DNA of 58,329 nt from an uncultured Bdellovibrionales bacterium (lineage in GTDB: Bacteria; Bdellovibrionota_C; UBA2361; OMII01). A model generated the notes under the pieces. It did not search any database. It was not told the origin of the DNA and was given only the letters and a program-made list of their open reading frames with translations. The position numbers and the translations under genes are program-made. Below are positions 1 to 20,045 of this stretch, piece by piece (positions within the stretch are counted from its first letter, which is position 1; every line of letters starts with the position of its first letter). The DNA is taken from contig CAZZJR010000004.1 of assembly GCA_964654585.1 (NCBI GenBank), forward strand, positions 13,157 to 71,485, in the 5' to 3' direction.

Positions 1-6
1 TAGTTG

Positions 7-867
7 ATGCGTCGTTCGTTGCTGGCTCTCTTGTTCGTGGCTGGAATCTCCCTGTCGGGATGCGGTGACTCGTCCGTTGCAGACGGGCTCGCGCAGCGTG
101 ATGCGAACGAGATCGTTGCCGCGCTGCGAGCGAGGGGTATCGAAGCCAGCACCGAGAAGGAGCGTGGCGCGAAGGGGCGCTACACGGTGTCAGTGTCCTC
201 TGACCGGTTCGGTGAGGCAGCGGCGGCTCTTACAGAGCTTGGTCTGCCTGCGGAGCAGAAGCTCTCCTTCGGTGAGCTCGTTGCGCCATCCGGAATCCTT
301 CCCAGTTCGCGAGAGGTAGAAGCACTGCGCCTCGACCGGGCTGCGGCGGCAGAAATTGAGGCGCTGCTATCACAGCATCCCGGCGTCGCCTCGGCTGGAG
401 TAATCGTGCGGATGCGGGCTACTCAGTCGGGTGAGTCTCCGGCCGTGTCAGTGGTTGTTCAGAAACGGGCTGGAGATGCGCTCGATGAGGCGGCCGTGCG
501 AGAGATGGTGGTGAGGGCCGTGCCAGGGATTCATCCAGAGGGGATCGTCCTCGTGATCGCTGAGCAGCGCCCTCCGCCTGTGGTCGCCGATAGCTCTGGA
601 GCTTCGCTGGTTCCGTTTCTCGTATTCTGGAGAGTTCCGCAAGATGACTACGGCGGGCTCTCCTTGCTGCTCTTGGGTCTTCTTGTCGGCATCACAGCAT
701 TGGCTGGCTTGGCAGGCTACATCTACGGGCAGTACAACCTGAGTCGGCACACCGACGTGCTGCGGGCAGATGGGCTCGACGGCGGCCGGGTAGTGCCGAC
801 GATCGCCGCCCCACTCAAGAGGGATATCGGCGAGGACGCAGGCGAAAGTGGAGATGAAGGGGCATGA
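7..867 (+). CDS. sctJ: T3SS inner-membrane ring lipoprotein (SctJ/YscJ/EscJ family), 286 aa
   Basis: Signal peptide with lipobox LSGC; YscJ-type N-terminus (GLAQRDANEIVAALRARGI, LTELGLP); ring motif EIEALLSQHPGVASAGV; one C-terminal TM helix; much shorter than flagellar FliF. ATG at 7 preferred over TTG at 4. Confidence 0.9.
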   Translation: MRRSLLALLFVAGISLSGCGDSSVADGLAQRDANEIVAALRARGIEASTEKERGAKGRYTVSVSSDRFGEAAAALTELGLPAEQKLSFGELVAPSGILPSSREVEALRLDRAAAAEIEALLSQHPGVASAGVIVRMRATQSGESPAVSVVVQKRAGDALDEAAVREMVVRAVPGIHPEGIVLVIAEQRPPPVVADSSGASLVPFLVFWRVPQDDYGGLSLLLLGLLVGITALAGLAGYIYGQYNLSRHTDVLRADGLDGGRVVPTIAAPLKRDIGEDAGESGDEGA

Positions 868-1088
868 GCGCAGACGGCAAGCAGCGGTTATCGCTGCATG
901 AACAGGCTCTCGTAGCGGTAGCGGTGCTGGTGGACGGCGCCGAAGCTGCGAATGTGCTGGCGCTCGACGCGCGCCGCGGAGACGTGCTGAAGGCTGAAGC
1001 GGCGAGCTGGAGCGAGATCGAGCTCGATGCCAGACTTCCGTTCGTTGGGACGCAGCTCCGCCGAGCGCTTGAGAGAGAGGGGGCTTAA
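864..1088 (+). CDS. Small hypothetical protein of the T3SS-like operon (74 aa, SctK position)
   Basis: ATGA overlap with the sctJ stop; helical amphipathic composition; fills the gap to the next coupled ORF. Confidence 0.7.
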   Translation: MSADGKQRLSLHEQALVAVAVLVDGAEAANVLALDARRGDVLKAEAASWSEIELDARLPFVGTQLRRALEREGA

Positions 1089-1092
1089 GGAT

Positions 1093-1449
1093 GTGGACGG
1101 CGACCGAGAACAGCTCGAAGAGTACCGTGGGCAGGTGCTGGGTGAGGTTGATCGGCGGGCAGATCGGGTTAAGCGGATCGATTCTGAGATCGCAGCGGCT
1201 GATTTTCGCCTTGAGAACCTGGCAGCACAGCGTAGCGCCATCGGTGGCGAAACAGGCAGGCTGCTGGCGCAGGTTGCGTATCGGGCTAAGGTCAAGCGCG
1301 ACCGGGCGAGGCTTCAGGAGCAGCGCGCTGAGGCGGCTGATGACCTGCGGAGCGCTATTGAGCGGCTTGAGCAGGTTGACTCTCAGATCGCGCGGCTCGG
1401 AGACGTGGCCGACGGTACCCAAGTTTCAGGCGAGGAGCAGGTGGAGTAA
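1093..1449 (+). CDS. Coiled-coil protein, SctO/FliJ-like stalk candidate (118 aa)
   Basis: GTG at 1093 after AAGGA; R/E/A/L-rich heptad pattern; directly upstream of sctQ, where sctO usually lies. Confidence 0.65.
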   Translation: MDGDREQLEEYRGQVLGEVDRRADRVKRIDSEIAAADFRLENLAAQRSAIGGETGRLLAQVAYRAKVKRDRARLQEQRAEAADDLRSAIERLEQVDSQIARLGDVADGTQVSGEEQVE

Positions 1450-2487
1450 GTGAGCACTCAGGGAATTCCGCAGAGCGGGGAGGGGAATGACGTTCAGGTC
1501 TGGGACCCACAACGCACCTGCCGCCGAGTCACGCGCGCGGAAGCGCTGCTCTCCCGAGGCTTCCTACGCTGCCGCCCGGAACGTTGGTTCCCGGGGCTAG
1601 CGGGTCAGTGGACCCCCGTCATGCATGCCTTTGGGTGCGAGGTGTCGGTCACGGATATTCGTCCGGCGTTGAATCGGGCACCAGTCGGGGGACACTCGTT
1701 CCTAGCGTCAGTTGCGGGGGAGCCACTTGTGCTCACGGTCGACCCTGATGGCGCGGAGGAGCTGGCGGGAGAGATTGTGCCCGGGGCTGAGTCGGCAGCC
1801 GCTGGAGTCGTGCTTGAGTACATGATGCGCCGGCTCTTCTTTACGCTCGTAACGTCGTGGACGGGACCTGAAACGGTGGGTGCATCTTTCGAGGGAGCTG
1901 CTGGTAGCTCCGCACCGCAGAGTTTGGCGAGTGTTCGGCTCGGAGTTTCGGTCAACACCACCCCCTTCACCGTTTGGTTTGGTCTCGGTCCGAAGATGGT
2001 TGAGACTCTCGACGGATTGTGGCGCAGGCAGGTGCAGTCGACGGCGGCGCGAGCTGCAACGGGCTCGGTGCAGGCGCGCGTTGAGGTGGCGCAGCTTGGT
2101 GTGCCTCCTCAGATGCTCTCGGAGTATCTCAAGGCAGGAACCGTGATCGATCTTGAGGTGCGGGCTTCCGATACGCTCACAGTGCGGGTCGGCGGCAAAG
2201 CTTGGATGCCGGGCAGGATGGTCAACGTTGACGGATTCTTTGGCTGTGAAGTGGCTCCGGGAGCGATCGCCGCGCCGGCAGTCCCTGAGGGAACGACCCG
2301 GCTCTCAGTTGAGCTCGGTAGTGTTGCGCTGGAAGGGCCCCAACTAGCGGAGTTCGGGCAGGCGGGAGCGGTTTTGCTCACCCAAACACCGGTCAGCGAA
2401 AATGTTTCGCTTGTTATTAACCAAGAGGTGGTTGGCAAGGCGAGGCTGTGCGTCTACGAGGGGCGCTTCGCCATCGAGGTGCTGTAG
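1450..2487 (+). CDS. sctQ: SctQ/FliM-FliN-like C-ring (sorting platform) protein with C-terminal SpoA domains, 345 aa
   Basis: SpoA-like segments (YLKAGTVIDL...VRVGGK; RLSVELGSVAL...VSLVINQEVVGKARLCVYEGRFAIEVL); GTG immediately follows the upstream stop. Confidence 0.8.
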   Translation: MSTQGIPQSGEGNDVQVWDPQRTCRRVTRAEALLSRGFLRCRPERWFPGLAGQWTPVMHAFGCEVSVTDIRPALNRAPVGGHSFLASVAGEPLVLTVDPDGAEELAGEIVPGAESAAAGVVLEYMMRRLFFTLVTSWTGPETVGASFEGAAGSSAPQSLASVRLGVSVNTTPFTVWFGLGPKMVETLDGLWRRQVQSTAARAATGSVQARVEVAQLGVPPQMLSEYLKAGTVIDLEVRASDTLTVRVGGKAWMPGRMVNVDGFFGCEVAPGAIAAPAVPEGTTRLSVELGSVALEGPQLAEFGQAGAVLLTQTPVSENVSLVINQEVVGKARLCVYEGRFAIEVL

Positions 2488-2702
2488 GCCCTCCGCCGTA
2501 ACCTGTCGACGGCTCGACGCTTTCAGGTTGGATTGCCCTACCCGTCAGTACCTACAAGGTCCATTTCCTGCCCCGCTATCGATAGCAAGCTGCCCCTGTA
2601 ACGAGCGCCTCGACCCTTGCCGTGCTGTGTGGTAGCTAATCGTGAGTCGACGGGTGCCCCGATGGTCCCCCGGCAATCTTGTAGGTCAATTCAGGAGGTC
2701 GA

Positions 2703-3434
2703 ATGTTCCCTTTTTCAACCACCCTTCGCGGAAGCTGTGCACGCAAACTCATCGCGCTTTCTCTATCGCTTGTCGCTCTCTCTGCTGTCGGCTGTAAGGC
2801 CGGTCCTGCCCCAGATGCGGGCTTCATTCAGAATCCGGAAGTTTTGCGCCAAGACGACAAGCTCCCATTCGACGCAGTTTGGTTCAAGGAGGGGGTAGAC
2901 TTCTCAAAATTTCAGACGGTCTACATCGCTCCGGTTGACACAACGCACCTGCTCAATCTCGATTGGTGGGATAAGGCGAATATCGCTCCCGGCGACCAGC
3001 AATCCCAGGCCGAGGAGCTAGGAGAGTACTTCCGGAATAAAGTTAAAGGTCAGTTCGCCGACGACGACAAGAATAAGCATACGGTGGTCGATACACCGGG
3101 CGATGACACGCTTATTGTAGAGCTTGCTATCGTGGAGGTCGTGCCTACCAAGGTTTGGCTCAACGCCATCGGCTACATCCTTGCTGGACAGCTCGATAAC
3201 GGCTTAACCGCATTCGAGGGCCGTTTCCGTGACGGCAAAACCAAAGAGGTCATCGCAGAGTTCAAGGACCGTGAGTACGGTCAAATCGATATCGTTAGCC
3301 TAGCGGACTTTCAGTGGAACAGGCACTCGCGCCACACCGTAGAAGTGTGGGGAGATCAGCTTGAAGAGGTTGTTTATGTTCAGCCAGGCGCGGCGATCTC
3401 TAGCATGTCATCTGTTACCCTGCGGCCCTGGTAA
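2703..3434 (+). CDS. DUF3313-family lipoprotein
   Basis: RBS GGAGG; lipobox-like AVGC; DUF3313-like motifs (GVDFSKFQTVYIAPV, LIVELAIVEV, EGRFRDGKTKEVIAEFKD). Confidence 0.7.
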   Translation: MFPFSTTLRGSCARKLIALSLSLVALSAVGCKAGPAPDAGFIQNPEVLRQDDKLPFDAVWFKEGVDFSKFQTVYIAPVDTTHLLNLDWWDKANIAPGDQQSQAEELGEYFRNKVKGQFADDDKNKHTVVDTPGDDTLIVELAIVEVVPTKVWLNAIGYILAGQLDNGLTAFEGRFRDGKTKEVIAEFKDREYGQIDIVSLADFQWNRHSRHTVEVWGDQLEEVVYVQPGAAISSMSSVTLRPW

Positions 3435-3486
3435 CTAAGAATTTTGCCGCTAGCAGCCTCGGCTTTCCTGGGGCTATGCTCCGGGG

Positions 3487-4065
3487 ATGGACAGCTCTTT
3501 TTTCGGGGCACTTGTAGCCCTGCTGCTCTTTAGCCAATTCGTCAAGTTCGCGACGGTCCTTTCTGTGTTTCGCTACGGGGCAGGGCTGGTCGGTTTTGAG
3601 CTTGGGGTGGTGACGCTTGTCGCTGCGCTTGGGCTCGCTTTTGCGACGCTCCCGAAAGAAGTCAGGGAGTCTGGTGCCGCGGTTGCGATCGTGTCGGGTG
3701 CCCCGGCGGATACTGTGGCGTTGCGCACCTCGCTTGTGCCGACGATGGCAGCGAGCCTCGACCCGCAGATTGTGAAGGGGCTTTACGGAGCAGATACTTC
3801 TCTCACGCCAGAGTCGCTCAAGAGCGATCTGGGCCGCTTGCTGCCTGCATACACCCTCTCGCAGCTTAAGTCGGCGCTCGTCCTCGGCGTCATGCTGCTT
3901 ATTCCGTTTGTTCTCCTGGACCTCGTTGTTGTGCATGTGCTCTCGCTGCTCGGTATTCAGCAGATCGGAGCGCAGGTTGTCTCGCTGCCTCTCAAGCTCC
4001 TCCTGTTCCTCGCTATCGATGGTTGGGGGCTGCTGGGTGCCAAGCTTCTCGCTGGAGGTGCTTAG
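3487..4065 (+). CDS. sctR: Divergent T3SS export-gate protein SctR/FliP family, 192 aa
   Basis: FliP/YscR signatures FVKFATVLSVFR and LIPFVLLDLVV...VSLPLKLLLFLAIDGWGLL. Confidence 0.88.
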   Translation: MDSSFFGALVALLLFSQFVKFATVLSVFRYGAGLVGFELGVVTLVAALGLAFATLPKEVRESGAAVAIVSGAPADTVALRTSLVPTMAASLDPQIVKGLYGADTSLTPESLKSDLGRLLPAYTLSQLKSALVLGVMLLIPFVLLDLVVVHVLSLLGIQQIGAQVVSLPLKLLLFLAIDGWGLLGAKLLAGGA

Positions 4066-4307
4066 TGCATCAAGAGATTTCGAGTCTCTGGCAGCAGGGC
4101 ACCAAGGTGCTGGTCGTGGTGCTAGTGCCGACGCTTCTTATTCCTGCAGTTGGCCTTCTGTCAGGGTTGCTCCAGGGTATGATGGGAGTGCGTGAAGATG
4201 GCCTCCAGTATGCGCTGCGCGCGCTTGCGCTGGCTGGGGTGGTCCTCGTTTTTGGGGCATCTTTCGCGAGTGCGTTTGCCGAGCTGATGCAGATGGCGCT
4301 GAGGTAG
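4065..4307 (+). CDS. sctS: Divergent T3SS export-gate protein SctS/FliQ family, 80 aa
   Basis: GTG overlaps the sctR TAG; two TM helices; GLLSGLLQ...REDGLQYALRALAL aligns with the GLLxxLxQ...QEQTLxFxxKLL pattern; size and position fit. Confidence 0.78.
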   Translation: MHQEISSLWQQGTKVLVVVLVPTLLIPAVGLLSGLLQGMMGVREDGLQYALRALALAGVVLVFGASFASAFAELMQMALR

Positions 4308-4308
4308 G

Positions 4309-4857
4309 ATGCTTGCCGCGCTCCTTCCCGTCTTCGGACCCGTTCTCCTGATGAGCATCGCTCTCAGCCTTTCGTTCGTGGTGGCTGGCTCGCCGCAGTC
4401 AGCGTTCTCTGGCGCGTTTGCCATCATGCTCCCGGCCGTCGCAGCCGCAGCTTCCCTGAGCATGCTCTACCGATGGTGCTTTCCTAATGCGGACACCCGA
4501 CCGGCTGGGCTGGCGGCCGCGCTGGTTACGCTCCTCATGCTCTTCTCGTCTAGGGATTACCTGTCGCTCTTTTCGTCTTCGGCTTGGCTGGGAGCTGATT
4601 CGGCTAATCTGCTGATTGCAGCGCGCGAGCTTGCGCTTGTGTGGGGGCTTTCCTTAATTTCGGTGATGGCTGTCGTGTTGGTGTTAGAGCTGCCCCTGCG
4701 CTTCATCTTTGCGGGCTGGAGTGGGCCCGGTCAGGAATCGACCCTGCGCAGCGCCCGGTGTGTGGCTTCATGCGCAATAGTAGGCGCCGCCTGGGTCCTG
4801 CTCGAGGAGAGCGCTGTGGAGAGGCTGTTGCACCTTAAGCAGCTCCTGGTGCGGTAG
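4309..4857 (+). CDS. sctT: Polytopic membrane protein, probable shortened SctT/FliR, 182 aa
   Basis: Very hydrophobic and coupled between sctS and sctU; sequence similarity by eye is weak, so the call is mainly syntenic. Confidence 0.55.
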   Translation: MLAALLPVFGPVLLMSIALSLSFVVAGSPQSAFSGAFAIMLPAVAAAASLSMLYRWCFPNADTRPAGLAAALVTLLMLFSSRDYLSLFSSSAWLGADSANLLIAARELALVWGLSLISVMAVVLVLELPLRFIFAGWSGPGQESTLRSARCVASCAIVGAAWVLLEESAVERLLHLKQLLVR

Positions 4858-4860
4858 GGT

Positions 4861-5442
4861 ATGGCTGAGAGCGCATTCGCCGGAAAAGAGGAGCTGCAGG
4901 AGCTTAAGGCAAGAGGGGTAGTATTTAGCTCGCCGCTAGCTACTCGGTCCGTCGTCCTGGCAGCGCTGCTTGGCTCAAGTGTAGCCGGTTGGGAATGGGT
5001 TACATCGGCGCCAGCGCCGGAGACGCTGCCGGCGATGATTGAACTGGCGCGAAGAGTAGGGCTCGCGGCAGTCGTGCTGTGCGCAGTTACCGTTGCGGCA
5101 ACGCTTGTCGTTACTTTGGCCTTCAACGGCTTCACGCTATCCGCAGGTTTTCTCTCACTCAAGATTCGCCCCGTGCGGCGAGAGAGCGTGTGTATAACCC
5201 TGGCGAGTGGGGTGCTTGGCGCCTCGGTGGGCTCTTTGCTCGCCTACGCATTCGCGGGCGAGCTGTTCCTGTTGCTCAGGACCACTGACGCAGCTTCTCT
5301 GGGAGCTAGCCTTGGCCGGCTGGCCTTGAGGCTTGCCAAAGTAGTTGCCCTTGGAGCGGTTGGGGTGGCGGTGATAGTGACACCGGTCACCAGGGCGCGT
5401 TTTCTCTGGCTTCACCGGTCCCGGAAGGGTGTGCGCGAGTAG
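4861..5442 (+). CDS. sctU: SctU/FlhB-like protein, transmembrane domain only, 193 aa
   Basis: N-terminus KEELQELKARGVVFSSPLAT resembles FlhB/YscU KxxxAReeGqvaxSxel; four hydrophobic segments; ends at the post-TM4 helix (TRARFLWLHRSRKGVRE); no NPTH domain; tandem TAGTAG stop. Confidence 0.68.
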   Translation: MAESAFAGKEELQELKARGVVFSSPLATRSVVLAALLGSSVAGWEWVTSAPAPETLPAMIELARRVGLAAVVLCAVTVAATLVVTLAFNGFTLSAGFLSLKIRPVRRESVCITLASGVLGASVGSLLAYAFAGELFLLLRTTDAASLGASLGRLALRLAKVVALGAVGVAVIVTPVTRARFLWLHRSRKGVRE

Positions 5443-5542
5443 TAGTGCAATTTGCAGCAAGGTGCTAGAAAGACCGAGTGAGGGCGGTCATTGGGGCCCA
5501 AAAAGGCGCGCGCTCTCGGATCAATTTTTTCGCCTCGCAGCT

Positions 5543-5791
5543 ATGTCCACAACCATCGGGAGTCCCCCGGATCCATTTTCCCTGTCGCCTCTGCTCTCGC
5601 TCCTGCCATCGTGCGGCTCGGTTTCGCGCCTCGAAGGGATGGTATCTTCTCTCTTTGCCCGTCAAGAGAAGGTGCTGCAGCTCCGCGAGCAGGGCGGTAG
5701 TAAGGAGATTGAGCGTCGTCTTGCCTGTGAGGAGGCGATGCTGCGGCAAGTTCTCGATTGGCTCTCGGCCAAGAGCGGAGGGGGTGAGTAA
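5543..5791 (+). CDS. Small hypothetical protein, 82 aa
   Basis: ATG at 5543; stop overlaps the next start (TAATG); helical C-terminal half. Confidence 0.6.
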   Translation: MSTTIGSPPDPFSLSPLLSLLPSCGSVSRLEGMVSSLFARQEKVLQLREQGGSKEIERRLACEEAMLRQVLDWLSAKSGGGE

Positions 5792-6225
5792 TGGACCTTC
5801 CTTCGCGCAAGCCAACGGATCTCCCGCGGCGTAGTTACTCAAGAGAAGAAGTAGTCGATTTGTACGAGCTTGGAAAACTGTGGCTCGAGACCGGCCAACA
5901 CAAGCGTGCCGAAGACATTATGTCTGGCCTTAACGAGGTTGCGCCGGATTTTGCTCCAGCCTGGCTCGGGACCGCCTTTCTGCGTGGAACACAGCTCGAC
6001 TACGAGGGAGTGGTCGCCGCGGCCACGTCAGCCCTGCGCCTTGAGCCCGACTGCGTTGAGGCGATGCTTTTTGTGGTTATCTCCGCTCTCGCTCTCAAAG
6101 ACTCGAGTATGGCCGGCACCTACCTTGGTGAAGTCGGTGACCGGATCGAGCAGGGGCAGGTCTCTAATCCGAACGTAACCCGGCTGTACAAGATGCAGCT
6201 CGCCCGTTACCAAAACCGTGAGTAG
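5791..6225 (+). CDS. TPR protein, SycD/LcrH (class II T3SS chaperone)-like, 144 aa
   Basis: TPR pattern (LYELGKLWLETGQHKRAEDIM, APDFAPAWLG, ALRLEPDCVEA); size and context match class II chaperones. Confidence 0.72.
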   Translation: MDLPSRKPTDLPRRSYSREEVVDLYELGKLWLETGQHKRAEDIMSGLNEVAPDFAPAWLGTAFLRGTQLDYEGVVAAATSALRLEPDCVEAMLFVVISALALKDSSMAGTYLGEVGDRIEQGQVSNPNVTRLYKMQLARYQNRE

Positions 6226-6295: not shown

Positions 6296-6365
6296 ACAAA
6301 GAGAGCAGCGAGGGCAGCGAGGGGGCAGAGAGGGGCTCTCTCGCTGCCCTCGCTGCTCTCTTTGT
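6296..6365. repeat. Perfect 26-bp inverted repeat (long hairpin) downstream of the T3SS-like operon
   Basis: ACAAAGAGAGCAGCGAGGGCAGCGAG (6296-6321) is the exact reverse complement of 6340-6365; 18-nt spacer can pair further through G-U pairs. Confidence 0.9.
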
Positions 6366-8202: not shown

Positions 8203-9561
8203 TCACGACGGCGTTGCAAACGACTCGTCCACATCCACATCAACAATAATTTTTGACTCTACCAGGTAGCGGTAGAGGTGCTGGTTGACGTGTGCTAGCG
8301 AAAGATTGTCAGCGCGCACCATTCCGGCTGCCGGGAAGGAGATGCGGCTGGTGTCGAAGTTCACAAGCTCTAGGTACGAAGAGAAGAGCTTGGATTCTAC
8401 CGGGTACACGAGCAGGTGAACCTGCTGCTGAAAGAGGCGGGCGGAGGCTTCGAGCACTCCGCCACTGAGCAGGGCGTAGCGGTCATCCTCAAGCAGCAGC
8501 GGCAGGAGGGCAGAGCTGACCACAAAGCCGAAGGGCGAGGTCGAGTACCGGCGCAGGTACTGAGTCAGGTGAAAGAACTGCGAGTAGGTGCTAACCAAGA
8601 TATTGTGATGCTGCTTCGAGAGCTGCTCGACGACGTCAAGCACTTCATCATCAGTTGACTGTTGCGTGCGCAAGATGTTGTTGAGCGAGAGCTCAAGAAC
8701 GTAGGCAGCGTCTTTCTCTGCGCCCTCTCCGAAGGACTGGAGCTTGGCATTGCACTGCTGCGCTAGGTCAGGAAACATGTGGTGCAGGGCCCGGAAGGAG
8801 CCGCGCTCAAGCAGGATCGGGCGCTTGTGGAAGAACTCCGTTGGCGGAAGAGGCTGCTGGTCGGAGTCGAACAGGATAGCGTTGGCGAGCCCCTTGCGCA
8901 GCAGCGCGATGGTAACCAGTCGCGGGTCAAGCCCTGCGAAAAGCGGTCCGGAAAGCTCGACGTAGTCAACCTCTACTCTACCCCCAGCAAGGGAGTCGAG
9001 CAGGCTAGGGAGTAGGGCGTTGATGTCGTCGCTGAGGTAGAAGGCTCCGTAGGCGAGGTTGACTCCCAAGACACCTAAAGCTTCTGACTGCCGAACCGAG
9101 TCTTCGTCGGTCATGTTTACGTGCAGGAGTATCTGGCTTGGTTCGGCTTTGGGGCTACCCTGGAAGCGGATCCCCATCCATCCGTGGCTCTCGTTAGTTC
9201 CGGCGAAGTTTCGTGCGGATACCGTGTCGGCGATTGTAAAGAACCCGGTCTCAGCACCGCGTGAGGGTCCAAGCCGTTCGACCAGCAGACTGAACTCGTG
9301 TGAGAGCATCGAGATGAGGCGCTCTTTAGAGACGTAGCGAGAGGCTTTGCCGTAAATACTGTCGCTCACGAGCATGTCGTACGCTGACATAGACTTGGCG
9401 ATCGTGCCGGAGGCAGCACCGACACGGAAGAACCAGCTCGCGATCTCCTGCCCGGCTCCGATCTCTGCGATCGTGCCGTAGCGCTGCTGGTCGAGGTTTA
9501 TGTGGAGCGCCTTGTGGTGCGGGTCAAGTGTGTCTGTGTTTAGCTTCGGAGCTACCGTCAT
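8203..9561 (-). CDS. Conserved cytoplasmic protein of the nucleotidyltransferase-like family often labelled nicotinate-nucleotide adenylyltransferase or (wrongly) TonB-dependent receptor
   Basis: Family motifs KALHINLD...YGTIAEIGAGQE..WFFRVGAASGTIAKSMSAYDM..SD.IYG, FADTV-like TIADTVSARNF, HGWMGIRFQ, ERGSFR. ATG at 9561 chosen. Confidence 0.7.
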   Translation of the reverse strand: MTVAPKLNTDTLDPHHKALHINLDQQRYGTIAEIGAGQEIASWFFRVGAASGTIAKSMSAYDMLVSDSIYGKASRYVSKERLISMLSHEFSLLVERLGPSRGAETGFFTIADTVSARNFAGTNESHGWMGIRFQGSPKAEPSQILLHVNMTDEDSVRQSEALGVLGVNLAYGAFYLSDDINALLPSLLDSLAGGRVEVDYVELSGPLFAGLDPRLVTIALLRKGLANAILFDSDQQPLPPTEFFHKRPILLERGSFRALHHMFPDLAQQCNAKLQSFGEGAEKDAAYVLELSLNNILRTQQSTDDEVLDVVEQLSKQHHNILVSTYSQFFHLTQYLRRYSTSPFGFVVSSALLPLLLEDDRYALLSGGVLEASARLFQQQVHLLVYPVESKLFSSYLELVNFDTSRISFPAAGMVRADNLSLAHVNQHLYRYLVESKIIVDVDVDESFATPS

Positions 9562-9621
9562 GGCACGATCGTATCTGATGGAGCAACTTGACGGAACGGC
9601 AAAAGAGAGCACGAGAACGTG

Positions 9622-9963
9622 CTACTTCTTTTTCGGGGGCTCTGCTGACTCAATGAGGGAGGCGTCGATGACCATCTTAACCGCCTGCTCTACGATGGCG
9701 CGCTGGTTCTTTGGAATAACTCCCTGGGCGGCGAGCTTCTCAGCCTCCTCCGAGACGAGGCTCATCAGCTTGTCTCGCTGTTCGAGAGTGATGGACCCAA
9801 GCGCGCCAGCTCCTCCTACCCGTGAAACGCCGGACACGCCTTTGACAGACGTCGCACCTTTGACCTTCTCAACTTCGGATACTGACTCAGTGCCTTTGAC
9901 GCCCTTGGTCGACCCGGAGGAGCCGACTGCACCAACTTTCTTGTCGTCTTTATTTTTGCCCAT
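9622..9963 (-). CDS. Small protein with low-complexity N-terminus; FlgM-like anti-sigma candidate, 113 aa
   Basis: Immediately downstream of the FliA-like sigma gene on the same strand; G/V/K/S-rich N-half and helical C-half. The CDS is well supported; the function is inferred. Confidence 0.6.
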   Translation of the reverse strand: MGKNKDDKKVGAVGSSGSTKGVKGTESVSEVEKVKGATSVKGVSGVSRVGGAGALGSITLEQRDKLMSLVSEEAEKLAAQGVIPKNQRAIVEQAVKMVIDASLIESAEPPKKK

Positions 9964-9991: not shown

Positions 9992-10783
9992 TTATCCTGA
10001 TGCTTTCCGCAACGCGTCGGTGAATGGCCCCTTCGAGCCATCTCCCTTGAGCTTCGCCATGAGGGGCCTGAGACCAGGCCGGATCTTCGGCGTGGGCGCG
10101 GCTTTCCCCTGCGCCATGCTCTTCTGCAGGTACGCAATCAGAACTTTGTGCTCTCGCATCACGTTAAGTCCATCTGTCTCCCACTCGGTGGCGACGGTGC
10201 GCAGTGAGAGACCATCCCAGTACACCTTGTAGAGGAGCCACTGGTGCACCGGCTCAAGAGCCGCCATGACCCCCACCATGCGCCGGTAATCGATTAGGTC
10301 ATCGGGCAGCGGATCGCTCGAGACAGCTTGCCGAGTGGCAACGATGCTGGCTCCAACGAGGAGTTCCCTGACCGCTGCTCTCATGTCTGCGTCTTCGTTT
10401 CCAGAAGACTCTGAAACAGGCAGGCGCCCGTCGCGCATTTCCGGGAAGACTCCGTACAACTCTGCTGAGATCTCTCGTGCCTTAGCCTCTACCGCGGTTT
10501 TGCTCGCTGTGTTGCGGGTCCAGCCCTTAGATTTTCTGGCGGCATCCGTCGATGCCTCGTGAATTCGCTTGCGCGCGTACCCCTTAAATGGAATTCCGCG
10601 GGTAGGGTCGAAGCGGCGCGAACAGAAGATCAGCGCTTCCATCGCGGCGCCATCGAGACCATCCAGTCGCCAATCTAGACTCCATGCTCGCGCCACGCTG
10701 CGGGCGATACTTTCGGCCCAACCGTGGTGCTCTACGACCAGGTTGTTAGCTTCTTCTTCTGTTAGGGTTTTTCTCTCGGCCAC
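9992..10783 (-). CDS. Sigma-70 family RNA polymerase sigma factor, FliA/WhiG-like, 263 aa
   Basis: Region 2 (LVVEHHGWAESIA...RRFDPTRGIPFKGYARKRIHEASTDAARK) and a region-4-like segment (LEPVHQWLLYKVYWDGLSLRTVA). Confidence 0.8.
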   Translation of the reverse strand: MAERKTLTEEEANNLVVEHHGWAESIARSVARAWSLDWRLDGLDGAAMEALIFCSRRFDPTRGIPFKGYARKRIHEASTDAARKSKGWTRNTASKTAVEAKAREISAELYGVFPEMRDGRLPVSESSGNEDADMRAAVRELLVGASIVATRQAVSSDPLPDDLIDYRRMVGVMAALEPVHQWLLYKVYWDGLSLRTVATEWETDGLNVMREHKVLIAYLQKSMAQGKAAPTPKIRPGLRPLMAKLKGDGSKGPFTDALRKASG

Positions 10784-10887: not shown

Positions 10888-11058
10888 GTTGCCAGCAGTC
10901 ACTTACACCCAGGATAGCCCAGAAGCTAGCAGTTCCAAATACTTAACTTTTTCAGAAGCAGTTTTAGCACGGGGATGGATAAGGGGGAGAACGCCGTAGG
11001 AAAGCTAAAAACGCGGCGGAAAGGTTTTGTTTCTACTCAGAAAAACGAGGGCAGCACA

Positions 11059-11940
11059 ATGGGAGTGGCTTCAGTCAGAGAGATTTCGAAGAGAGAGAAG
11101 GCTCGCGCACGTGGTGGTGCTAAGGCAGCTACGCGTTCGTCGAAAGCAAAGCTGCGACTGGTAAAGCCGACGCTGAAGGGTGACGGGTCGCCAACACCGC
11201 TTCAGCAAGAGGCGCTCATCCTGAAATATCGGCTCAAGGCACGCAAACTCGGCCGCAGCATCCTGCGCCGCTGGCACGCCCGCATGGACCTCGACGAGGT
11301 AGACAGCCTAGTCGATCTCTCCCTGTGTGAAGCTGTAAAGCGCTTCAACCCGTCAAAGGGTGCAAGCTTTATGACCTTCCTGTTTTACCACCTAAAAGGC
11401 AACCTCGTTCGTTCGGTCGCCGCGGCGGCCGCTTCGGCATCTCTCCCGTCAAGCCTGCTCGCTGAGGGCGAGGGCACTCCACTCAGTGGAGACCTGATGG
11501 GCGAGCTGAGCCTGCGGGGCCTAAACTCGGCGGAGATCGCCGAGGCAATTTCAAGTCAGGACGCTCCGCAGCCAGATGAGGCGCTGTGGAAGAAGCAGCT
11601 TCACGGCCAGAGCTCACTGGCTTGCGAGAAGCTCGACGCCCTTGAGCAGGAGATCATAAAGCGCATCTTCATCCAGGAGCAGCAGATCATGGATATCGCA
11701 GCTTCCCTCGGATACAGCCGCTGCCACATCTCACGTGTCAAGAAGAAGGCTCTAGAGACGCTGTACGACGAGCTGCGTGGCGCGATGAACCAGGATGACC
11801 TTGGCCAGCGCCCGTCGTTCGACGATGATTCCGATGATGAGGTCGAGCAGCGGATCATGAACCGTAAAGCGATCCACCGCCGCCGGCCGCGCTCTCGCGC
11901 ATCGAAGCAGTCACCATTCGTTCCAGCTCGCGCCGCGTAA
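11059..11940 (+). CDS. Sigma-70 family sigma factor, SigB/F-like, 293 aa
   Basis: Region 2 (SLCEAVKRFNPSKGASFMTFLFYHLKG) and region 4 HTH (LEQEIIKRIFIQEQQIMDIAASLGYSRCHISRVKKKAL); basic N- and C-terminal tails. Start could be 10975. Confidence 0.85.
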   Translation: MGVASVREISKREKARARGGAKAATRSSKAKLRLVKPTLKGDGSPTPLQQEALILKYRLKARKLGRSILRRWHARMDLDEVDSLVDLSLCEAVKRFNPSKGASFMTFLFYHLKGNLVRSVAAAAASASLPSSLLAEGEGTPLSGDLMGELSLRGLNSAEIAEAISSQDAPQPDEALWKKQLHGQSSLACEKLDALEQEIIKRIFIQEQQIMDIAASLGYSRCHISRVKKKALETLYDELRGAMNQDDLGQRPSFDDDSDDEVEQRIMNRKAIHRRRPRSRASKQSPFVPARAA

Positions 11941-13775: not shown

Positions 13776-13994
13776 GGCGGGTCCTCGTTGGTCAGTAACG
13801 CAAAAGGGGGAAGGAACGGCGGAGCAGCGGAAAAGTTAGGAGCCCTTCCCCTCAGAGGATCTTTCGGCACTTTCCCGGTCCAGCATGAGCGCGGAGTCGC
13901 CGCTTGAGGGCGCTCGAAACCGGCAATTTCTGCTCGTTTTGCGAATTTGTGCCGCTAACTAGGCAGGGAGACGGGCTCGGGGTCGGCTGTTTGC

Positions 13995-14024
13995 TTGTGA
14001 CAATCGTCGGATTTTCAGTATACT
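13995..14024 (+). promoter_or_regulatory. Sigma70-like promoter candidate TTGTGA-N18-TATACT
   Basis: Good -10 and plausible -35 about 120 nt upstream of the HesB/IscA gene. Confidence 0.4.
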
Positions 14025-14143
14025 GGGGAGGTTATTGGTGGTCCGGTCATAAAAGTCCTGGCGGCTAGAGGCACCCCGTGATTTTCCCCCATCAGTGGGG
14101 TGGAACGGCGAGCCTCGGGAAATCCAAACTGAGAGGAAGTGTT

Positions 14144-14572
14144 ATGGGTTCATGTGGAAGTTCATCTTGTGGTAGCGGCTGCGGTCCGAAGAATGTTGCT
14201 CCGGAGCAAACTCTAGAAGCTACTGAAGCGTTCACCGGCACAGATGAGAGGCCAGTTCTCTTCACCGCAGCGGCTGCGGATGCGGTTTCTAAGGCGCTGA
14301 AGGAAGAGGGCGAGCCGGGGGACTTCTTGCGAGTGTCAGTGGTTGGTGGCGGCTGCTCTGGTTACCAGTACGGGCTCGATTTCGATAAAGAAGAGCGGAT
14401 GGGCGACATCGCCATGGAGTTTGAGGGCGTGAAGGTCGTTGTTGACCCAGTGAGCGCTGGTTACCTACGTGGTACGGTTGTTGACTACGTGACTGGTCTT
14501 CACGGCACGGGTTTTCAGTTCAAGAACCCGAACGCGAAGCGCACCTGTGGTTGCGGTAGCTCGTTCAGCTAG
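14144..14572 (+). CDS. erpA: HesB/IscA/ErpA-family Fe-S cluster carrier protein, 142 aa
   Basis: GGGCSGYQY and FKNPNAKRTCGCGSSF motifs; ATG at 14144 after GAGGA. Subtype (ErpA vs IscA/SufA) uncertain. Confidence 0.9.
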   Translation: MGSCGSSSCGSGCGPKNVAPEQTLEATEAFTGTDERPVLFTAAAADAVSKALKEEGEPGDFLRVSVVGGGCSGYQYGLDFDKEERMGDIAMEFEGVKVVVDPVSAGYLRGTVVDYVTGLHGTGFQFKNPNAKRTCGCGSSFS

Positions 14573-15500: not shown

Positions 15501-17921
15501 ATGTGTCAGGCCCTGTGCAGAGCCGCCCAGCGGGTGCGGCAGACGCTTCTGGTCAGCGCAGCAGCTTTTGCGTGCGGCGTTGACTGGTCCGAGTCTGCAG
15601 CGCAAGAGCTGCGGGTGGTGCCTGGCGAGTACATTGTGACGCTGCCTGCGCGTGCGTCAGGCAAGAGCGTTACAGCTGCCGCTTCGAGCCCAAACTTTTC
15701 ATCCTCGATGGTTGGTGTTGCTGACGTGCTGAACGGCGAGGCCCTAGTCGTGCGGGCTCCCGGTAACGGCGTGATGCGCGCGGCGACAGCTGCTGCAGAT
15801 GGCTCTGTGCCGTACCGAGCCGAGCACGACCTCTGTAAGGCGATCCTTGCCGAGGGGCGAGCCGAGAGCTGCTCCCCCAACTTTGTTGTCCGGGCCCTGG
15901 CTGTTCCCAACGACCCCCAGCTGTCGCAACTGTGGGGTCTGAGCGAAGCGAGCGGAATCAATGCGCCGCGGGCTTGGGACCTCTTCACCGGGTCAAGCTC
16001 GATCGTTGTGGCGGTGATCGACACAGGGATAGACTACAATCACCCGGACCTGGCCGCGAACATGTGGAGAAATCCGGGAGAGATCGCGAGCAACGGGGTT
16101 GACGACGATGGTAACGGATACGTCGACGACCTGTACGGAATTAATGCTCGAACTGGCGCGGCACAGCCTGGAAATCCGCTGGATGACCACTACCACGGGA
16201 CACACGTAGCAGGAACCATCGGCGCTGTGGGCAACAATGGAATAGGCGTCGTGGGGGTCAATCAGCGCGTGAAGATGATGGCGCTCAAGTTCCTCTCGTC
16301 AACTGGCAGCGGCAGCCTATCTGACGCGATCCGGGCGATCGACTACGCTACCATGATGAAGAACGACTACGGGGTGAACGTCCGGGTTTCGAACAATTCG
16401 TGGGGCGGCGGAGGTTACTCGGCCGCATTGGAGAATGCTATCAAACGCGCCCGAAATGCGGGGATCATCTTCGTGGCGGCGGCTGGAAACTCCAGTGTAG
16501 ACACTGACTCAGAACCGAGCTACCCATCAGGATACGATGTGGACAATGTCGTGTCGGTCGCCGCTATCGACAGCTCGCACAACCTTGCGACCTTTTCCAA
16601 TTACGGCGCCACGACGGTTGATATCGCCGCGCCGGGAGTCGATATTCGCAGCACCATGCCGACTTCGCAGTACGGCAAGTTATCGGGTACGTCGATGGCA
16701 ACGCCGCACGTAGCCGGAGCGCTCGCGCTCTTGCTGGGTCGGGAGCCAGGGCTTAGCTACCTCGAGGCTGTAGACCGGTTGTACCTCTCTGGGGTGACCA
16801 GGGCATCCCTGGTCGACATACCCACCGGGGTGTCTCTTGTGCGAACTCAACGAACTCTAAACGTCGCACGGATGCTCTACAACGAAACAGCGCCCCTGCC
16901 GTCCCTGCCCCCGAACCAGGTTCCGTGCGGGTACAGCTTCCAGTCGGCTAACCTGCTTGCGGGCGGCGAAGTGGACACGGCAGCCGATGAGGCCCCGATC
17001 GTCAACCAGACTGATGAAGGGAGCTTCTACCAAATTGACCTGCCGTTCTCCTTCCAGTTCTTCCGGGAGAGCGTCAACAGAATCTGGCTCTCGCCCAACG
17101 GGATCGTCTACACCAAGTCGCCGCTGGGGCTTGATTACGTTGTGAGCGCTAAGGCGCCGAAAAACTCTATCGCGGCGCTGCACACTGACCTCATTCCCCG
17201 AGCGGCGGATCAGGGCGTCAGGGTAGCTGTCTCGGATAACAAGGTAACGGTGATGTGGAGGTCCGAACACTACGGACTCCCGGGTCAGGGGGTCATCACT
17301 GTTCGTTTGACGATACGCGCAGATGGTACCTATTCATCGTCCGCGCACTTCGGTTCGGATGGGCTCAATTACGCTCTCAAGAATCAGGTTCTCGGTAATC
17401 CATTCGAATCGACCCCGACCGACGGCCGCGCGCTGGTCGGAGTGACCGGGGCACTCTCAACGTTCTTCTCGGTTCTTGACCTGGCTGCCACCCAGACCGC
17501 CCTGACTTCATCCTCAAGCGAGGCACTGGCTTTGGGGGCGGGGATGACCACGAGCTGTGCGGTCGCGCCACCGCCCCAGGATGGAGACTCAGAGCCCGTA
17601 ATCACAGGGGTGGTCATCAGCCAAACCGGTGCCGGCCGTTTAAGTGTGCCGGCACAGGTGGCTCTCTACGGGTCGGGGTCGGGTAGTGTCCCGGTGACGT
17701 TCAGGGTTAACTCCCGCACCTGCCGAAGTACGGTGCCGTTCAACCTAAGCGATGGCACTGCACGGGTTAGGTTACGGGTTCCGGCAGGCGTACGGGGGTT
17801 GACCGCGTCCGCCTCGAGTGCGAGCGATTCAATTCGTTTCCGTTGGTCGGCAGGAGCGGGGGCAGGTGCGAGCGACTCAACTCGCTGCGCCAGGCTCCTG
17901 AGGAGTGTTACCCCCTTCTAA
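15501..17921 (+). CDS. Secreted S8 (subtilisin-like) serine protease with C-terminal beta-rich domains, 806 aa
   Basis: Catalytic triad motifs VAVIDTGID, HYHGTHVAGTI, SGTSMATPHVAG; oxyanion AAAGN; prodomain VPGEYIV. Confidence 0.93.
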   Translation: MCQALCRAAQRVRQTLLVSAAAFACGVDWSESAAQELRVVPGEYIVTLPARASGKSVTAAASSPNFSSSMVGVADVLNGEALVVRAPGNGVMRAATAAADGSVPYRAEHDLCKAILAEGRAESCSPNFVVRALAVPNDPQLSQLWGLSEASGINAPRAWDLFTGSSSIVVAVIDTGIDYNHPDLAANMWRNPGEIASNGVDDDGNGYVDDLYGINARTGAAQPGNPLDDHYHGTHVAGTIGAVGNNGIGVVGVNQRVKMMALKFLSSTGSGSLSDAIRAIDYATMMKNDYGVNVRVSNNSWGGGGYSAALENAIKRARNAGIIFVAAAGNSSVDTDSEPSYPSGYDVDNVVSVAAIDSSHNLATFSNYGATTVDIAAPGVDIRSTMPTSQYGKLSGTSMATPHVAGALALLLGREPGLSYLEAVDRLYLSGVTRASLVDIPTGVSLVRTQRTLNVARMLYNETAPLPSLPPNQVPCGYSFQSANLLAGGEVDTAADEAPIVNQTDEGSFYQIDLPFSFQFFRESVNRIWLSPNGIVYTKSPLGLDYVVSAKAPKNSIAALHTDLIPRAADQGVRVAVSDNKVTVMWRSEHYGLPGQGVITVRLTIRADGTYSSSAHFGSDGLNYALKNQVLGNPFESTPTDGRALVGVTGALSTFFSVLDLAATQTALTSSSSEALALGAGMTTSCAVAPPPQDGDSEPVITGVVISQTGAGRLSVPAQVALYGSGSGSVPVTFRVNSRTCRSTVPFNLSDGTARVRLRVPAGVRGLTASASSASDSIRFRWSAGAGAGASDSTRCARLLRSVTPF

Positions 17922-17995
17922 GGTGGCTGCCATCCAGGCTCGCTGCCGTGTTACAAGCCCTGTGGGCTCTACAACGCTACCAAGTGGAATCGCAC

Positions 17996-19288
17996 ATGAC
18001 TGAGATCGCATCACCTTTCTTTCCCGACCTTGCTCCCCAGCTTGACCGATACGCAACACTGATAGCCGCTCACGGTCTCAACGTGCAGCCGGGGCAGCTC
18101 GTCCAGGTAATGGGGGAGAGCTACCACCGCCCACTCTACCAGCGGCTGCTGCGCGAGCTGTATCGCCGCGGCGCCGGCTTCGTGCACGTTGAACTCTCGG
18201 ATCCACTGCTGCAGCGCATCAGGATCCAGGAGTCCCAGCCGCAGTTCCTACGGAGCACACCCGGCTTCTACTCAGCTAAGTTCCGGGAGCTAGTGGACTC
18301 TGGAGCGGCTAACCTCAAGGTGCTGGGCCCAGAGTTTCCAACCTACCTTGCAGACCTCCCCACACAGTCGGTGAACGAGGTTCGCAAATCCGCCTACCAA
18401 GCGGCGAAGTACTTCTACAACGAGGGTATTGAGCGCTCAAAGGTGCACTGGTGTGTAGTCGCCGCAGCTACCCCGGGCTGGGCTGCACGGCTCTTCCCCA
18501 GCCTCTCTCCCCGCGATGCCGAGGCTCGGCTGTGGGGTGAGATCTTTCGCATCTGTCGGGTCGACCGCCCGAACTTTCTTGAGCTGTGGGAGGCGCACAA
18601 CAAGCTGCTGCACGCCCGTGCGCGGCGGCTGACAGAGCTGAAGATCAAGGAGCTGCACTTTGAGGGGCCTGGTACTGACCTAGTCGTCGGGCTATCGGAG
18701 CTGGCGCTCTTTAAGGGGGGTTCAGACCTCGCCCCGACTGGACATAGCTTCGAGCCGAACCTGCCGACTGAGGAGTGCTTTACGACGCCTGATTGGCGAG
18801 CGACCCGTGGAACCGTCGCTGCCACGAGGCCCTTTCTGGTCAATGGCACCTTGGTCCGCGACTTAACGCTCACCTTCACGAATGGTGAAATCTCGCATTT
18901 TGAGTGTCGCGCGGGAGGGGACGCCCTGCGCTCATACTTGGAGAGTGATGCGGGCGCGAAGAAGCTGGGAGAAGTGGCACTAGTCGGCACCGATTCGCCA
19001 GTGTTCCAGAGCGGTTTGGTATTCGAGGAGATATTGTTCGACGAGAATGCGGCCTGCCACATCGCGGTTGGGTCGGCGTACAAGGGGTGTCTGCGCGGGG
19101 GCGCAGGCATGAGTGACGTCGAATGTGCTGATATCGGCTGTAATTCCAGCTCAGTGCACACCGACATCATGATCTCTTCGGAGCAGGTTAGTGTAACCGC
19201 GAATCTCTTCAGTGGAGAGCGATTGATGCTGATCGATAGAGGTCGATGGACAGCAGATCTCGCCCCGCAGGGATCGTCGAGAGCATGA
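17996..19288 (+). CDS. M29-family aminopeptidase (AmpS/AmpT-type)
   Basis: HGLNVQPGQLV, FEGPGTDLVVGL, PNLPTEECFTTPD, LGEVALV, LFDENAACHIAVGSAY, SSVHTDIMI motifs. ATG at 17996. Confidence 0.92.
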   Translation: MTEIASPFFPDLAPQLDRYATLIAAHGLNVQPGQLVQVMGESYHRPLYQRLLRELYRRGAGFVHVELSDPLLQRIRIQESQPQFLRSTPGFYSAKFRELVDSGAANLKVLGPEFPTYLADLPTQSVNEVRKSAYQAAKYFYNEGIERSKVHWCVVAAATPGWAARLFPSLSPRDAEARLWGEIFRICRVDRPNFLELWEAHNKLLHARARRLTELKIKELHFEGPGTDLVVGLSELALFKGGSDLAPTGHSFEPNLPTEECFTTPDWRATRGTVAATRPFLVNGTLVRDLTLTFTNGEISHFECRAGGDALRSYLESDAGAKKLGEVALVGTDSPVFQSGLVFEEILFDENAACHIAVGSAYKGCLRGGAGMSDVECADIGCNSSSVHTDIMISSEQVSVTANLFSGERLMLIDRGRWTADLAPQGSSRA

Positions 19289-19901
19289 CGCGCAACCTTT
19301 CCGGTGCAGAGCAACATCAAATAAGTACTTGCCAACACGTTCGTTGGGTGTCACCATTTTTTCAGTGCTCGGTCTCTCACTGACTGCAGAAAATCTAGCG
19401 GCCCTCATTAAGAGTCGCAGTCGGCAGTGAGTGAGCGACCAAACCAAGGGTGAGCGATGCTTGTCCGGGCAAGGAGCAGGCACCAGCTTCGTGAAGTAGG
19501 ATACGAGGCGGTGATGTTGAAGGAAGGTTGGTCGGTAGCTTGGCGGTGGAGGAAGGTAGTAGTTGTCCCCTCCGGTGCTATCGCGAGCTGCGAGGATCCG
19601 CGGCGAGGTGAGAAAGCTCTTCCCTTGTCTCGAAAAATCTTGCAGCATTCGTAGAGAAGAATTGTCAAGCGATGCATCTTATCTTCCGATAAGGCAAAGC
19701 AGACAGTCCCTCAAGTAATTTGCGCAGTGTCTTCTACACGATTGGAGGTAAGGCGCGAGAGTTGAGGGGATAAAAGTTTCGGGTATACGGCATACTTTTG
19801 GGGAGGGTTTTCCCGGCTCGCGAGAGGTGCTGAGGCTCGATTAACAAACGTAGATAGCGGTTAGAACTAGTTCTTCCGCAATCAACACTGGAGAAAAAAA
19901 A

Positions 19902-19982: not shown

Positions 19983-20002
19983 GCAGCGCTTTGCGTCTTA
20001 CG

Positions 20003-20045
20003 GCGCCCTCCGACGCTTTCGAGTGTCGGAGGGCGCTTTTTTTTT
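20003..20045 (+). terminator. Intrinsic terminator after the Lys-rich microprotein
   Basis: GCGCCCTCCGAC-gct-TTCG-agt-GTCGGAGGGCGC stem followed by 9 T. Confidence 0.92.

Follow-up and report, generated by a model that had tools for sequence, protein, structure and literature searches.

A divergent, lineage-specific operon derived from a type III secretion system in uncultured, mostly freshwater bacteria

Layout of the operon and its ring and platform genes

The 58,329-nt stretch of DNA analyzed here (contig CAZZJR010000004.1 of an uncultured Bdellovibrionales bacterium; hereafter the window, always meaning the whole stretch) opens with a compact operon, positions 4-6225 on the + strand, whose products are related to components of type III secretion systems (T3SSs). 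This operon, which we found to be lineage-specific, under selection and T3SS-derived, is inherited vertically and occurs here in the form that contains the gate. It comprises eleven open reading frames (ORFs), in the order sctJ, a gene for a 74-aa protein, a coiled-coil gene, sctQ, a DUF3313 gene, sctR, sctS, a gene in the sctT position (its product is called T' below), a gene for the membrane domain of SctU (U'), a gene for an 82-aa protein and a TPR gene (Table 1). An initial annotation of the same DNA had listed eleven co-oriented ORFs, and all of them were recovered at their coordinates and on one strand. The consecutive junctions measured -4, +4, 0, +215, +52, -1, +1, +3, +100 and -1 nt. 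Since seven of the ten are overlaps or gaps of 4 nt at most, the description of the run as mostly translationally coupled also holds. The coiled-coil ORF was confirmed as such, with a different extent: the 118-aa version starts at a GTG codon, and the earlier 140-aa version used an upstream ATG at 1027. No published description of this operon was found in the literature.

The first product, SctJ, matched PF01514 at 1e-14 and the SctJ model TIGR02544 at 3e-25, the latter under the NCBI trusted cut-off. The FliF model scored only 0.04. The protein is therefore an SctJ-type lipoprotein and not FliF, in agreement with the initial annotation. A signal peptide, a lipobox (LSGC), a C-terminal transmembrane (TM) segment at residues 219-237 and a cytoplasmic tail of about 45 aa were predicted, the last two from hydropathy. 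SctJ orthologues were present in all related loci, at 42-95% identity. SctQ matched PF01052 (FliMN_C) at 1e-15 in two stretches, corresponding to two C-terminal copies of the SpoA domain, and TIGR02551 (SctQ) at 9e-9. Its homologues formed 181 clusters of 340-347 aa, every one of which came from metagenome-assembled genomes (MAGs) or metagenomes and none from an isolate. Genes for SctK, SctL and SctN, already noted as lacking between sctJ and sctQ, are indeed absent from this interval.

The region upstream of the window was viewed on a near-identical Logan contig (L001; the related loci are also given L numbers), which reaches 6.5 kb beyond the window start. It had been suggested at first that sctV, sctN, sctC and sctD might lie there. 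Instead, we found two genes for FHA-domain proteins just upstream of the window and, beyond this pair on the opposite strand, genes for a response regulator, RNase G, a GAF protein and MreB. The two FHA proteins occupy the positions where SctD and SctK would be expected. The larger one (FHA449, 449 aa) matched FHA and Yop-YscD_cpl domains at 1e-31 and 1e-14 and has a single TM segment at residues 423-441. Since the only TM segment lies so close to the C-terminus, FHA449 has no periplasmic ring domain. The other one (FHA421, 421 aa) showed a zinc-ribbon-like N-terminus, a long low-complexity linker, a C-terminal FHA domain and no TM segment. Neither FHA449 nor FHA421 corresponds to a ring-building SctD with periplasmic domains.

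An extra stand-alone FHA protein of 107-136 aa was observed in deep relatives, where it is encoded upstream of the response regulator (L037:2847-3170 and L038:4598-5008). A gene for a Ser/Thr protein kinase lies 1.6 kb 3' of the TPR gene in L034. The extra FHA proteins and the kinase gene support a link to phosphothreonine signaling.

The core genes of non-flagellar T3SSs were taken as in Abby & Rocha 2012 (PMC3459982). Out of this set, SctJ, SctQ, SctR and SctS were found here, and SctT, a full-length SctU and an SctD with periplasmic domains were not.

The hairpin downstream of the TPR gene, found by a consensus scan, is probably the end of the operon as predicted from its sequence (Table 1). 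Two exact 151-nt records (1324-1474 and 1549-1699) were observed in one aquatic run labeled RNA-Seq. The first of them bridges the junction of the coiled-coil gene and sctQ, which is a faint hint of co-transcription, and carry-over of DNA is possible. These two records are the only RNA-labeled matches to the window and are too few for any conclusion on expression.

Table 1. Genes and features of the operon and of its downstream neighborhood in the window.
Feature	Position	Strand	Remarks
SctJ, inner-membrane ring lipoprotein	4-867	+	287 aa; PF01514, TIGR02544
74-aa clade-specific protein	864-1088	+	ATGA overlap with sctJ
Coiled-coil protein, candidate SctO/FliJ-like stalk	1093-1449	+	118 aa; candidate by size and position only
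SctQ, cytoplasmic ring / sorting platform	1450-2487	+	345 aa; two SpoA (FliN) domains
DUF3313 lipoprotein	2703-3434	+	243 aa; PF11769
SctR (FliP family), export gate	3487-4065	+	192 aa; PF00813
SctS (FliQ family), export gate	4065-4307	+	80 aa; PF01313, TIGR01403
T', polytopic membrane protein in sctT position	4309-4857	+	182 aa; separate family
U', SctU/FlhB membrane domain only	4861-5442	+	193 aa; orthologue and profile matches
82-aa small protein	5543-5791	+	TAATG overlap with TPR gene
TPR protein	5791-6225	+	144 aa; TPR_19
GC-rich hairpin, 20-bp stem, then T-rich tail	6307-6354	+	82 nt past TPR stop codon; consensus scan only
469-aa protein	8203-9612	-	no Pfam/NCBIfam match; most conserved neighborhood gene, 67-94% identity in carrier loci
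113-aa gene	9622-9963	-	conserved neighbor; no FlgM match
Divergent FliA/WhiG-like sigma gene	9992-10783	-	263 aa; TIGR02479, far under cut-off
Second sigma-like gene	10975-11940	+	TIGR02479, far under cut-off

The export gate and the protein in the SctT slot

SctR was recognized by PF00813 (FliP) at 4e-22 over model positions 11-190 of 191, and the profile of its family matched FliP/SpaP chains in the Protein Data Bank (PDB) at 1e-24. The FliP and SctR models scored about alike against it. SctS matched PF01313 (Bac_export_3) at 4e-5, with 24.0 bits against a cut-off of 25, and TIGR01403 at 1e-4. Its family profile matched FliQ chains in the PDB at 2e-5 and SpaQ at 2e-3. These facts do not agree with the initial view that all subunits of the gate are short, because SctR fills its model almost completely and SctS has the normal length.

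When the window's U' protein was searched alone, its match to PF01312 was marginal (E = 3.9). The model was matched by nine of 13 syntenic orthologues, with a best value of 7e-14. Columns 5-105 of the U' family profile were in register with FlhB residues 11-122 (hhalign E = 3e-4), and an hmmsearch of the family against FlhB gave 1e-6. The members of the family are 188-222 aa long, none exceeding 222 aa, compared with about 355 aa for a full-length SctU. Because of the matches of orthologues and profile to PF01312 and FlhB and because of these lengths, we concluded that U' is an SctU cut down to its membrane domain. The cytoplasmic autocleaving NPTH domain of SctU was absent from every family member examined (at least 13 lineages). 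An SctU without cytoplasmic domain, as the initial annotation had described it, is thus upheld. The U' profile gave no relevant match among PDB chains, though FlhB chains are in the library. A Foldseek search of the PDB with the AlphaFold2 (AF2) monomer model of U' (predicted local distance difference test, pLDDT, 66) returned noise only, with E values of at least 0.7.

The protein in the SctT slot, T', is a different case. Its AF2 model showed five long helices (pLDDT 76), and E127 and R150 are invariant in the family. An exhaustive profile search yielded 78 representatives, of which the full-length ones are about 176-217 aa long and none reaches the canonical length of SctT/FliR (about 255 aa). 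The T' family fills the SctT slot in every relative with a full gate block, and it is missing from the form that has only sctR and sctS (L034). PF01311 (Bac_export_1) was matched by none of 51 T' family members. The T' profile found no match among PDB chains, though FliR/SpaR chains are in the library, and its comparison with a profile of 25 SctT/FliR sequences gave a probability of 0.1% (hhalign). Reciprocal searches with hidden Markov models of T' and of SctT/FliR did not cross. As a positive control, the family SctR profile was compared with SctT/FliR, resulting in E = 3e-4 over 79 columns. Since this control detects the distant FliP-FliR relationship, the null result for T' is not a mere lack of power. 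Pfam recognized R, S and U but not the gene in the T slot also in L037, a more canonical relative.

A Foldseek search of the PDB with the AF2 monomer of T' again gave noise only (E at least 0.7), with no SctT among the matches. Extended hairpin proteins probably need their complex. The monomer results for T' and U' were for this reason taken as uninformative, and not as contrary evidence. A diverged SctR paralogue was also considered for T' and was rejected, the hhalign probability being 0.1%.

What stands of the initial label "sctT-like" is therefore the position of the gene and the polytopic membrane character of its product; no homology to SctT/FliR was detected. On its sequence, T' would be either an SctT that has diverged past recognition or a non-homologous replacement.

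Related loci, selection and neighborhood

The SctR scan of species-representative genomes gave 15 loci, found in MAGs labeled Bdellovibrionota, Bdellovibrionales or "delta-proteobacterium" and coming from Lake Mendota, Erken, Zurich, Amazon and Delaware Bay. Twelve loci were added by a metagenome scan with SctJ, and five by the contexts of SctR/SctQ homologues. The carriers are only uncultured bacteria, mostly from fresh water, with the labels Bdellovibrionota, Oligoflexia or "delta-proteobacteria", and read-set indexing placed the organism of the window in many freshwater, reservoir and drinking-water metagenomes. More than 30 independent loci share this gene order, even where identity falls to about 40%, and the chromosomal surroundings (mreB, a GAF gene, rng and a response regulator gene) are constant. 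Since it is syntenic in so many independent loci, the operon is real, far beyond chance.

The full set of genes was present in 22 loci. In the gate-less form (L023, L027 and L035) the R-S-T'-U' block is lacking, and the 82-aa and TPR genes come immediately after sctQ. The R-S-only form (L034) lacks the coiled-coil gene, T' and U'. The gate-less loci form one clade in the SctQ tree (support 98/98), and this clade is nested among gate-bearing loci, which fits a single loss. The gate block is intact and under selection in the window, as had been proposed, but it is not indispensable to the locus, because it was lost in the gate-less clade and because T' and U' are missing in L034. An identical 44-aa ORF was observed between sctQ and the 82-aa gene in two gate-less loci (L023:12465-12596 and L035:11093-11227); it could be either a remnant or a small gene of new origin.

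The ratio of nonsynonymous to synonymous substitution rates (dN/dS) was determined by the Nei-Gojobori method between the window and L004/L005, for which dS is 0.3-0.8 and unsaturated. In all 13 genes compared, the ratio was between 0.03 (TPR gene) and 0.28 (coiled-coil gene). The TPR gene was the most constrained of the operon (0.03-0.04); the values were about 0.05 for the 82-aa protein, 0.05-0.06 for SctQ, 0.04-0.10 for the 74-aa protein, 0.19-0.24 for T', 0.23-0.28 for the coiled coil and 0.26-0.27 for U'. No frameshifts were found in the orthologues. These values and the intact frames bear out selection rather than decay, for which the initial annotation had named dN/dS as the check. T' and U' are the fastest-evolving proteins: their identity is 25-35% in comparisons in which the TPR protein retains 50-70%.

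The comparison of L001 with the window showed a mosaic. From sctR to the TPR gene (3487-6225) dS was 0-0.006, and from sctJ to the DUF3313 gene (4-3434) most genes had dS of 0.12-0.35, sctQ only 0.02. This pattern suggests either that strains have recombined or that the assembly is chimeric.

In the SctR/FliP tree, the family formed a long-branched clade of its own (support 99/98), apart from all sampled flagellar FliP and injectisome SctR groups, with L018 in an intermediate position. The claim that the system is T3SS-derived and very divergent is thereby sustained. The tree was sampled only from matches to the window query and was rooted at its midpoint, and a "third branch" is therefore a hypothesis and not a result.

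The small proteins of the operon gave fewer matches. The 74-aa protein is encoded in every operon variant including the gate-less ones, and nine residues are invariant in its 17-sequence alignment. It had no Pfam or PDB match. A FliG_N-like adaptor, to which it has a motif resemblance, was rejected as a candidate, since neither Pfam member scans nor a PDB profile search supported it. The 118-aa protein is an antiparallel coiled coil with generic coiled-coil matches only. Its identification with SctL, SctO or FliJ was not adopted, the sole support being one weak FliJ match (0.0027) among 17 orthologues. The DUF3313 protein (PF11769, 6e-15) carries a lipobox, SAVGC. Its gene was present in L001 and L004-L008 and absent from L009-L018 and L034-L038; only the closest sub-lineage has this accessory gene as an insertion in its operon.

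The 82-aa protein shows the motif PDPFSLSPLL..SLFAR..AMLRQILDWL and 26 invariant columns across 11 lineages, and it is retained in the gate-less variants. It had no match in Pfam or the PDB and is a candidate for a chaperoned substrate or a gate-binding partner. The TPR protein matched TPR_19 at 3e-4, the SctY model at 0.02 and the SycD/LcrH model at 0.13, all under cut-off, and its family profile found generic TPR chains only in the PDB. With only generic TPR matches, a specific SycD, SctY or YscG chaperone was rejected. The earlier name "TPR chaperone" is therefore correct as to the fold, and the likeness to a T3SS chaperone is one of size and position only.

Genes for FHIPEP, a T3SS ATPase or a secretin were not found among the window's largest ORFs. 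Likewise, neither they nor Tad genes occurred among the called genes within 10 kb in L001 and L034-L038 (precomputed Pfam) or in the scanned large flank ORFs of L004-L017. Neither SctL nor SctK was found in any related locus examined, and no needle or translocon genes were found in the window or the related loci. Adjacency to Tad or SctV in relatives was considered and rejected, since the SctJ metagenome scan and four SctQ contexts showed the same housekeeping flank.

The rest of the window encodes housekeeping proteins (BamA, TyrRS, IscS-like and others) and proteases. Conserved downstream neighbors are a 199-aa protein with a Sec signal, a 315-aa protein and the 469-aa protein, whose gene lies downstream of the sigma and 113-aa genes. 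The two sigma-like genes matched TIGR02479 at 4e-8 and 1e-11, both far under the cut-off. Orthologues of the 263-aa sigma, the 113-aa protein and the second sigma are kept in the flank of L034 (69%, 39% and 61%), and similar genes lie by L036 and L037. The sigma pair and the 113-aa gene are candidates for a dedicated regulator set, linked to the operon by conserved neighborhood only.

Proteins of about 630 aa were observed 3-7 kb downstream of the operon in two relatives (L035:18649-20544, 631 aa, and L037:17488-19380, 630 aa). They have Flagellin_N and Flagellin_C ends with a beta-propeller-like insert (PD40 / FG-GAP), and their N-termini are 45% identical. The gene follows the sigma gene in L037, and its homologue lies 7 kb downstream in L035. 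In L037, a fliL gene (13992-14561, - strand) stands directly after the TPR gene. No flagellin-like gene was found in the 58-kb window by tblastn. The flagellin-domain neighbor may be a substrate or a coincidence.

Further along the window, genes for secreted-type peptidases were observed at 15501-21680, namely a subtilase S8 (806 aa), an M29 aminopeptidase and an M12B reprolysin-like metalloprotease (- strand), a run that fits a predatory or proteolytic lifestyle. A 597-aa ORF at 21764-23557 (-) had no Pfam match, and a 651-aa protein at 41462-43417 (+) had only a weak match to an E1-E2 ATPase (6e-10).

Interpretation and comparison with known systems

We consider it likely that the products of the operon form the inner-membrane and cytoplasmic core of a T3SS-derived device that has no needle and relies on components from other loci. 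SctJ and SctQ would build the inner-membrane ring and the cytoplasmic platform, and the tail-anchored FHA protein would replace the cytoplasmic FHA domain of SctD. With such a stand-in, assembly or firing would depend on threonine phosphorylation. The remodeled export channel would be made of SctR, SctS, T' and the N-terminal part of SctU. Since this channel has no switch domain, it would serve a single substrate class. The 82-aa and TPR proteins might act as a pair, either a chaperoned substrate with its chaperone or a gate-binding pair. Such a device would not be self-sufficient and would require, as a minimum, an SctV-type protein from another locus. It could be driven by the proton-motive force or by a foreign ATPase and, in line with what has been proposed for the needle-less T3SS* of Myxococcus, would deliver proteins either into the periplasm or to a machine of the envelope that acts as its partner. 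Because SctJ, SctQ, the FHA pair, the 82-aa protein and the TPR protein persist after loss of the gate, the locus does not appear to be an autonomous channel.

A bolder interpretation, which we regard as tentative and rather doubtful as a whole, is that of a third deep branch of the T3SS superfamily. In this branch, an unrelated membrane protein would have taken the place of SctT, the switch domain of SctU would have been deleted and tail-anchored phosphothreonine readers would substitute for the SctD ring. The result would be a needle-less, phospho-regulated core that is docked to another envelope machine and delivers lytic or flagellin-fold proteins in predatory bacteria.

Several points weigh against the dependent core that we favor. 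The assignment of T' derives from negative evidence, and T' may be an SctT diverged beyond detection. The AF2 monomer models offered no informative fold matches for the predicted gate proteins. The partner machine is proposed by analogy. The clean loss of R-S-T'-U' shows that the ring and platform can persist without a gate in cis, and the cis gate could be redundant with a second gate.

Among other explanations, the operon might be one piece of a complete injectisome that is scattered as in Chlamydia, with SctV, SctN/L, SctD, SctC and the needle at other loci, and conventional apart from its divergence. Chlamydiales, among others, have non-flagellar T3SS loci that are scattered in this way (PMC3459982). 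Irrespective of any parts encoded in trans, however, the cis SctU has no switch domain in all of the 13 or more lineages examined, the SctT slot holds an unrelated family and the SctD-like FHA449 is without a periplasmic ring domain. In none of the related loci examined is an ATPase, secretin or FHIPEP gene present within 10 kb, and SctR falls outside the sampled injectisome clade. We consider this explanation unlikely.

An autonomous minimal exporter, in which SctJ, SctQ, R, S, T' and the N-terminal part of SctU form a channel driven by the proton-motive force without SctV or an ATPase, would agree with the constant and strongly selected cis gene set, to which SctV or ATPase genes were never adjacent in the loci examined. 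As far as is known, however, SctV/FlhA is needed in every T3SS studied. In addition, the sister clade keeps SctJ, SctQ, the 82-aa protein and the TPR protein without a gate, and the conserved core is therefore no channel itself and must cooperate with genes elsewhere. This makes an autonomous exporter very improbable.

We give equally little credence to an accessory system linked to the flagellum, that is, a derived branch of flagellar export under sigma-28-like control that exports flagellin-fold proteins. The two divergent FliA/WhiG-like sigma genes and the 113-aa gene beside the operon, kept even in L034, would be explained by it, as would the fliL gene after the TPR gene of L037, the flagellin-domain genes of L037 and L035, and the near-equal scores of SctR against the FliP and SctR models. 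The ring protein, however, is an SctJ-type lipoprotein and not FliF, and no rod, hook, FliG, FliM or Mot genes were found in any locus. The sigma matches are far under the family cut-offs, the window itself has no flagellin-like gene, and the flagellin neighbors occur in two loci only and could belong to an ordinary flagellum. A flagellar T3SS would have the FliF MS-ring, FliG, rod/hook proteins and FlhA in the cluster; these are absent, and the operon contains no flagellar structural genes. The initial statement that the system is not flagellar is thus correct for the ring protein, and it has to be qualified in view of the FliA-like sigma, fliL and giant flagellin-domain genes beside the operon in relatives.

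A decaying T3SS or flagellar relic without present function, which the missing core genes, the fast evolution of T' and U' and the loss of the gate block in some lineages might suggest, is close to refuted: dN/dS lies at 0.03-0.28 for every gene, T' and U' not excepted, frames are intact in more than 30 lineages, in which lengths and coupling are conserved as well, and there are 78 T' and 181 SctQ cluster representatives of conserved length.

The dependent, needle-less core that we favor can be compared with three known systems. The chlamydial T3SS is encoded in scattered loci, and its CdsD carries FHA domains. CdsD keeps its periplasmic ring-building domains, and a secretin, a needle, an ATPase and a full-length SctU are present in Chlamydiae. 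The present system resembles it in having FHA domains at the SctD position and in that it may be split over several loci, and it differs in that FHA449 has no periplasmic ring-building domains. The domains predicted in the FHA proteins suggest that a T3SS-like device is controlled here by Ser/Thr phosphorylation.

To our knowledge, flagella and injectisomes are considered to share SctR5S4T1, SctU and SctV as an invariant set. A comparison with the SctR5-S4-T1-U1 apparatus (SpaPQR/SpaS; FliPQR-FlhB; PDB 6PEM, 6R6B, 6S3L, 6F2D) shows that the R and S profiles match it (1e-24 and 2e-5), that the order R-S-(T)-U is kept and that the N-terminus and first TM helices of SctU are in register with FlhB. 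In contrast to this apparatus, no similarity to SctT/FliR was found, SctU ends after its membrane domain and SctV is not adjacent. A lineage under selection without a recognizable SctT, an SctU switch, or an SctV or ATPase in cis is a natural test of which gate parts are indispensable. It also probes how a gate can do without substrate switching.

The only functionally studied needle-less T3SS that we know of is that of Myxococcus. This T3SS* has no secretin, needle or translocon; it is recruited by the Tad-like Kil pilus, with which it acts, and prey lysis requires it (PMC12075869, PMC12428579, PMC3459982). According to a review, Kil and T3SS* co-occur only in Cystobacterineae (PMC12428579). 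The present operon is similar to the T3SS* of Myxococcus xanthus (mxan_2434-2464) in that it is T3SS-derived with SctJ, SctQ and SctR/S/U homologues, in that its locus has no secretin, needle or translocon, and in that it is vertically inherited and selected in a predatory lineage (PMC3459982, PMC12075869, PMC12428579). Myxococcal non-flagellar T3SS loci retain the ATPase SctN, a full sorting platform and a complete secretion apparatus (PMC3459982, PMC12075869). In the present system, by contrast, no ATPase, SctL, SctK or SctV is encoded in cis in any locus examined, SctU is without its C-domain, another family occupies the SctT slot, a tail-anchored FHA protein stands for SctD and no Tad genes lie within 10 kb. 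Since the T3SS* of Myxococcus keeps its ATPase and complete export apparatus, the present operon represents a more radical reduction. A related, more reduced system in another predatory phylum would extend the Tad/T3SS* model of predation beyond the Cystobacterineae.

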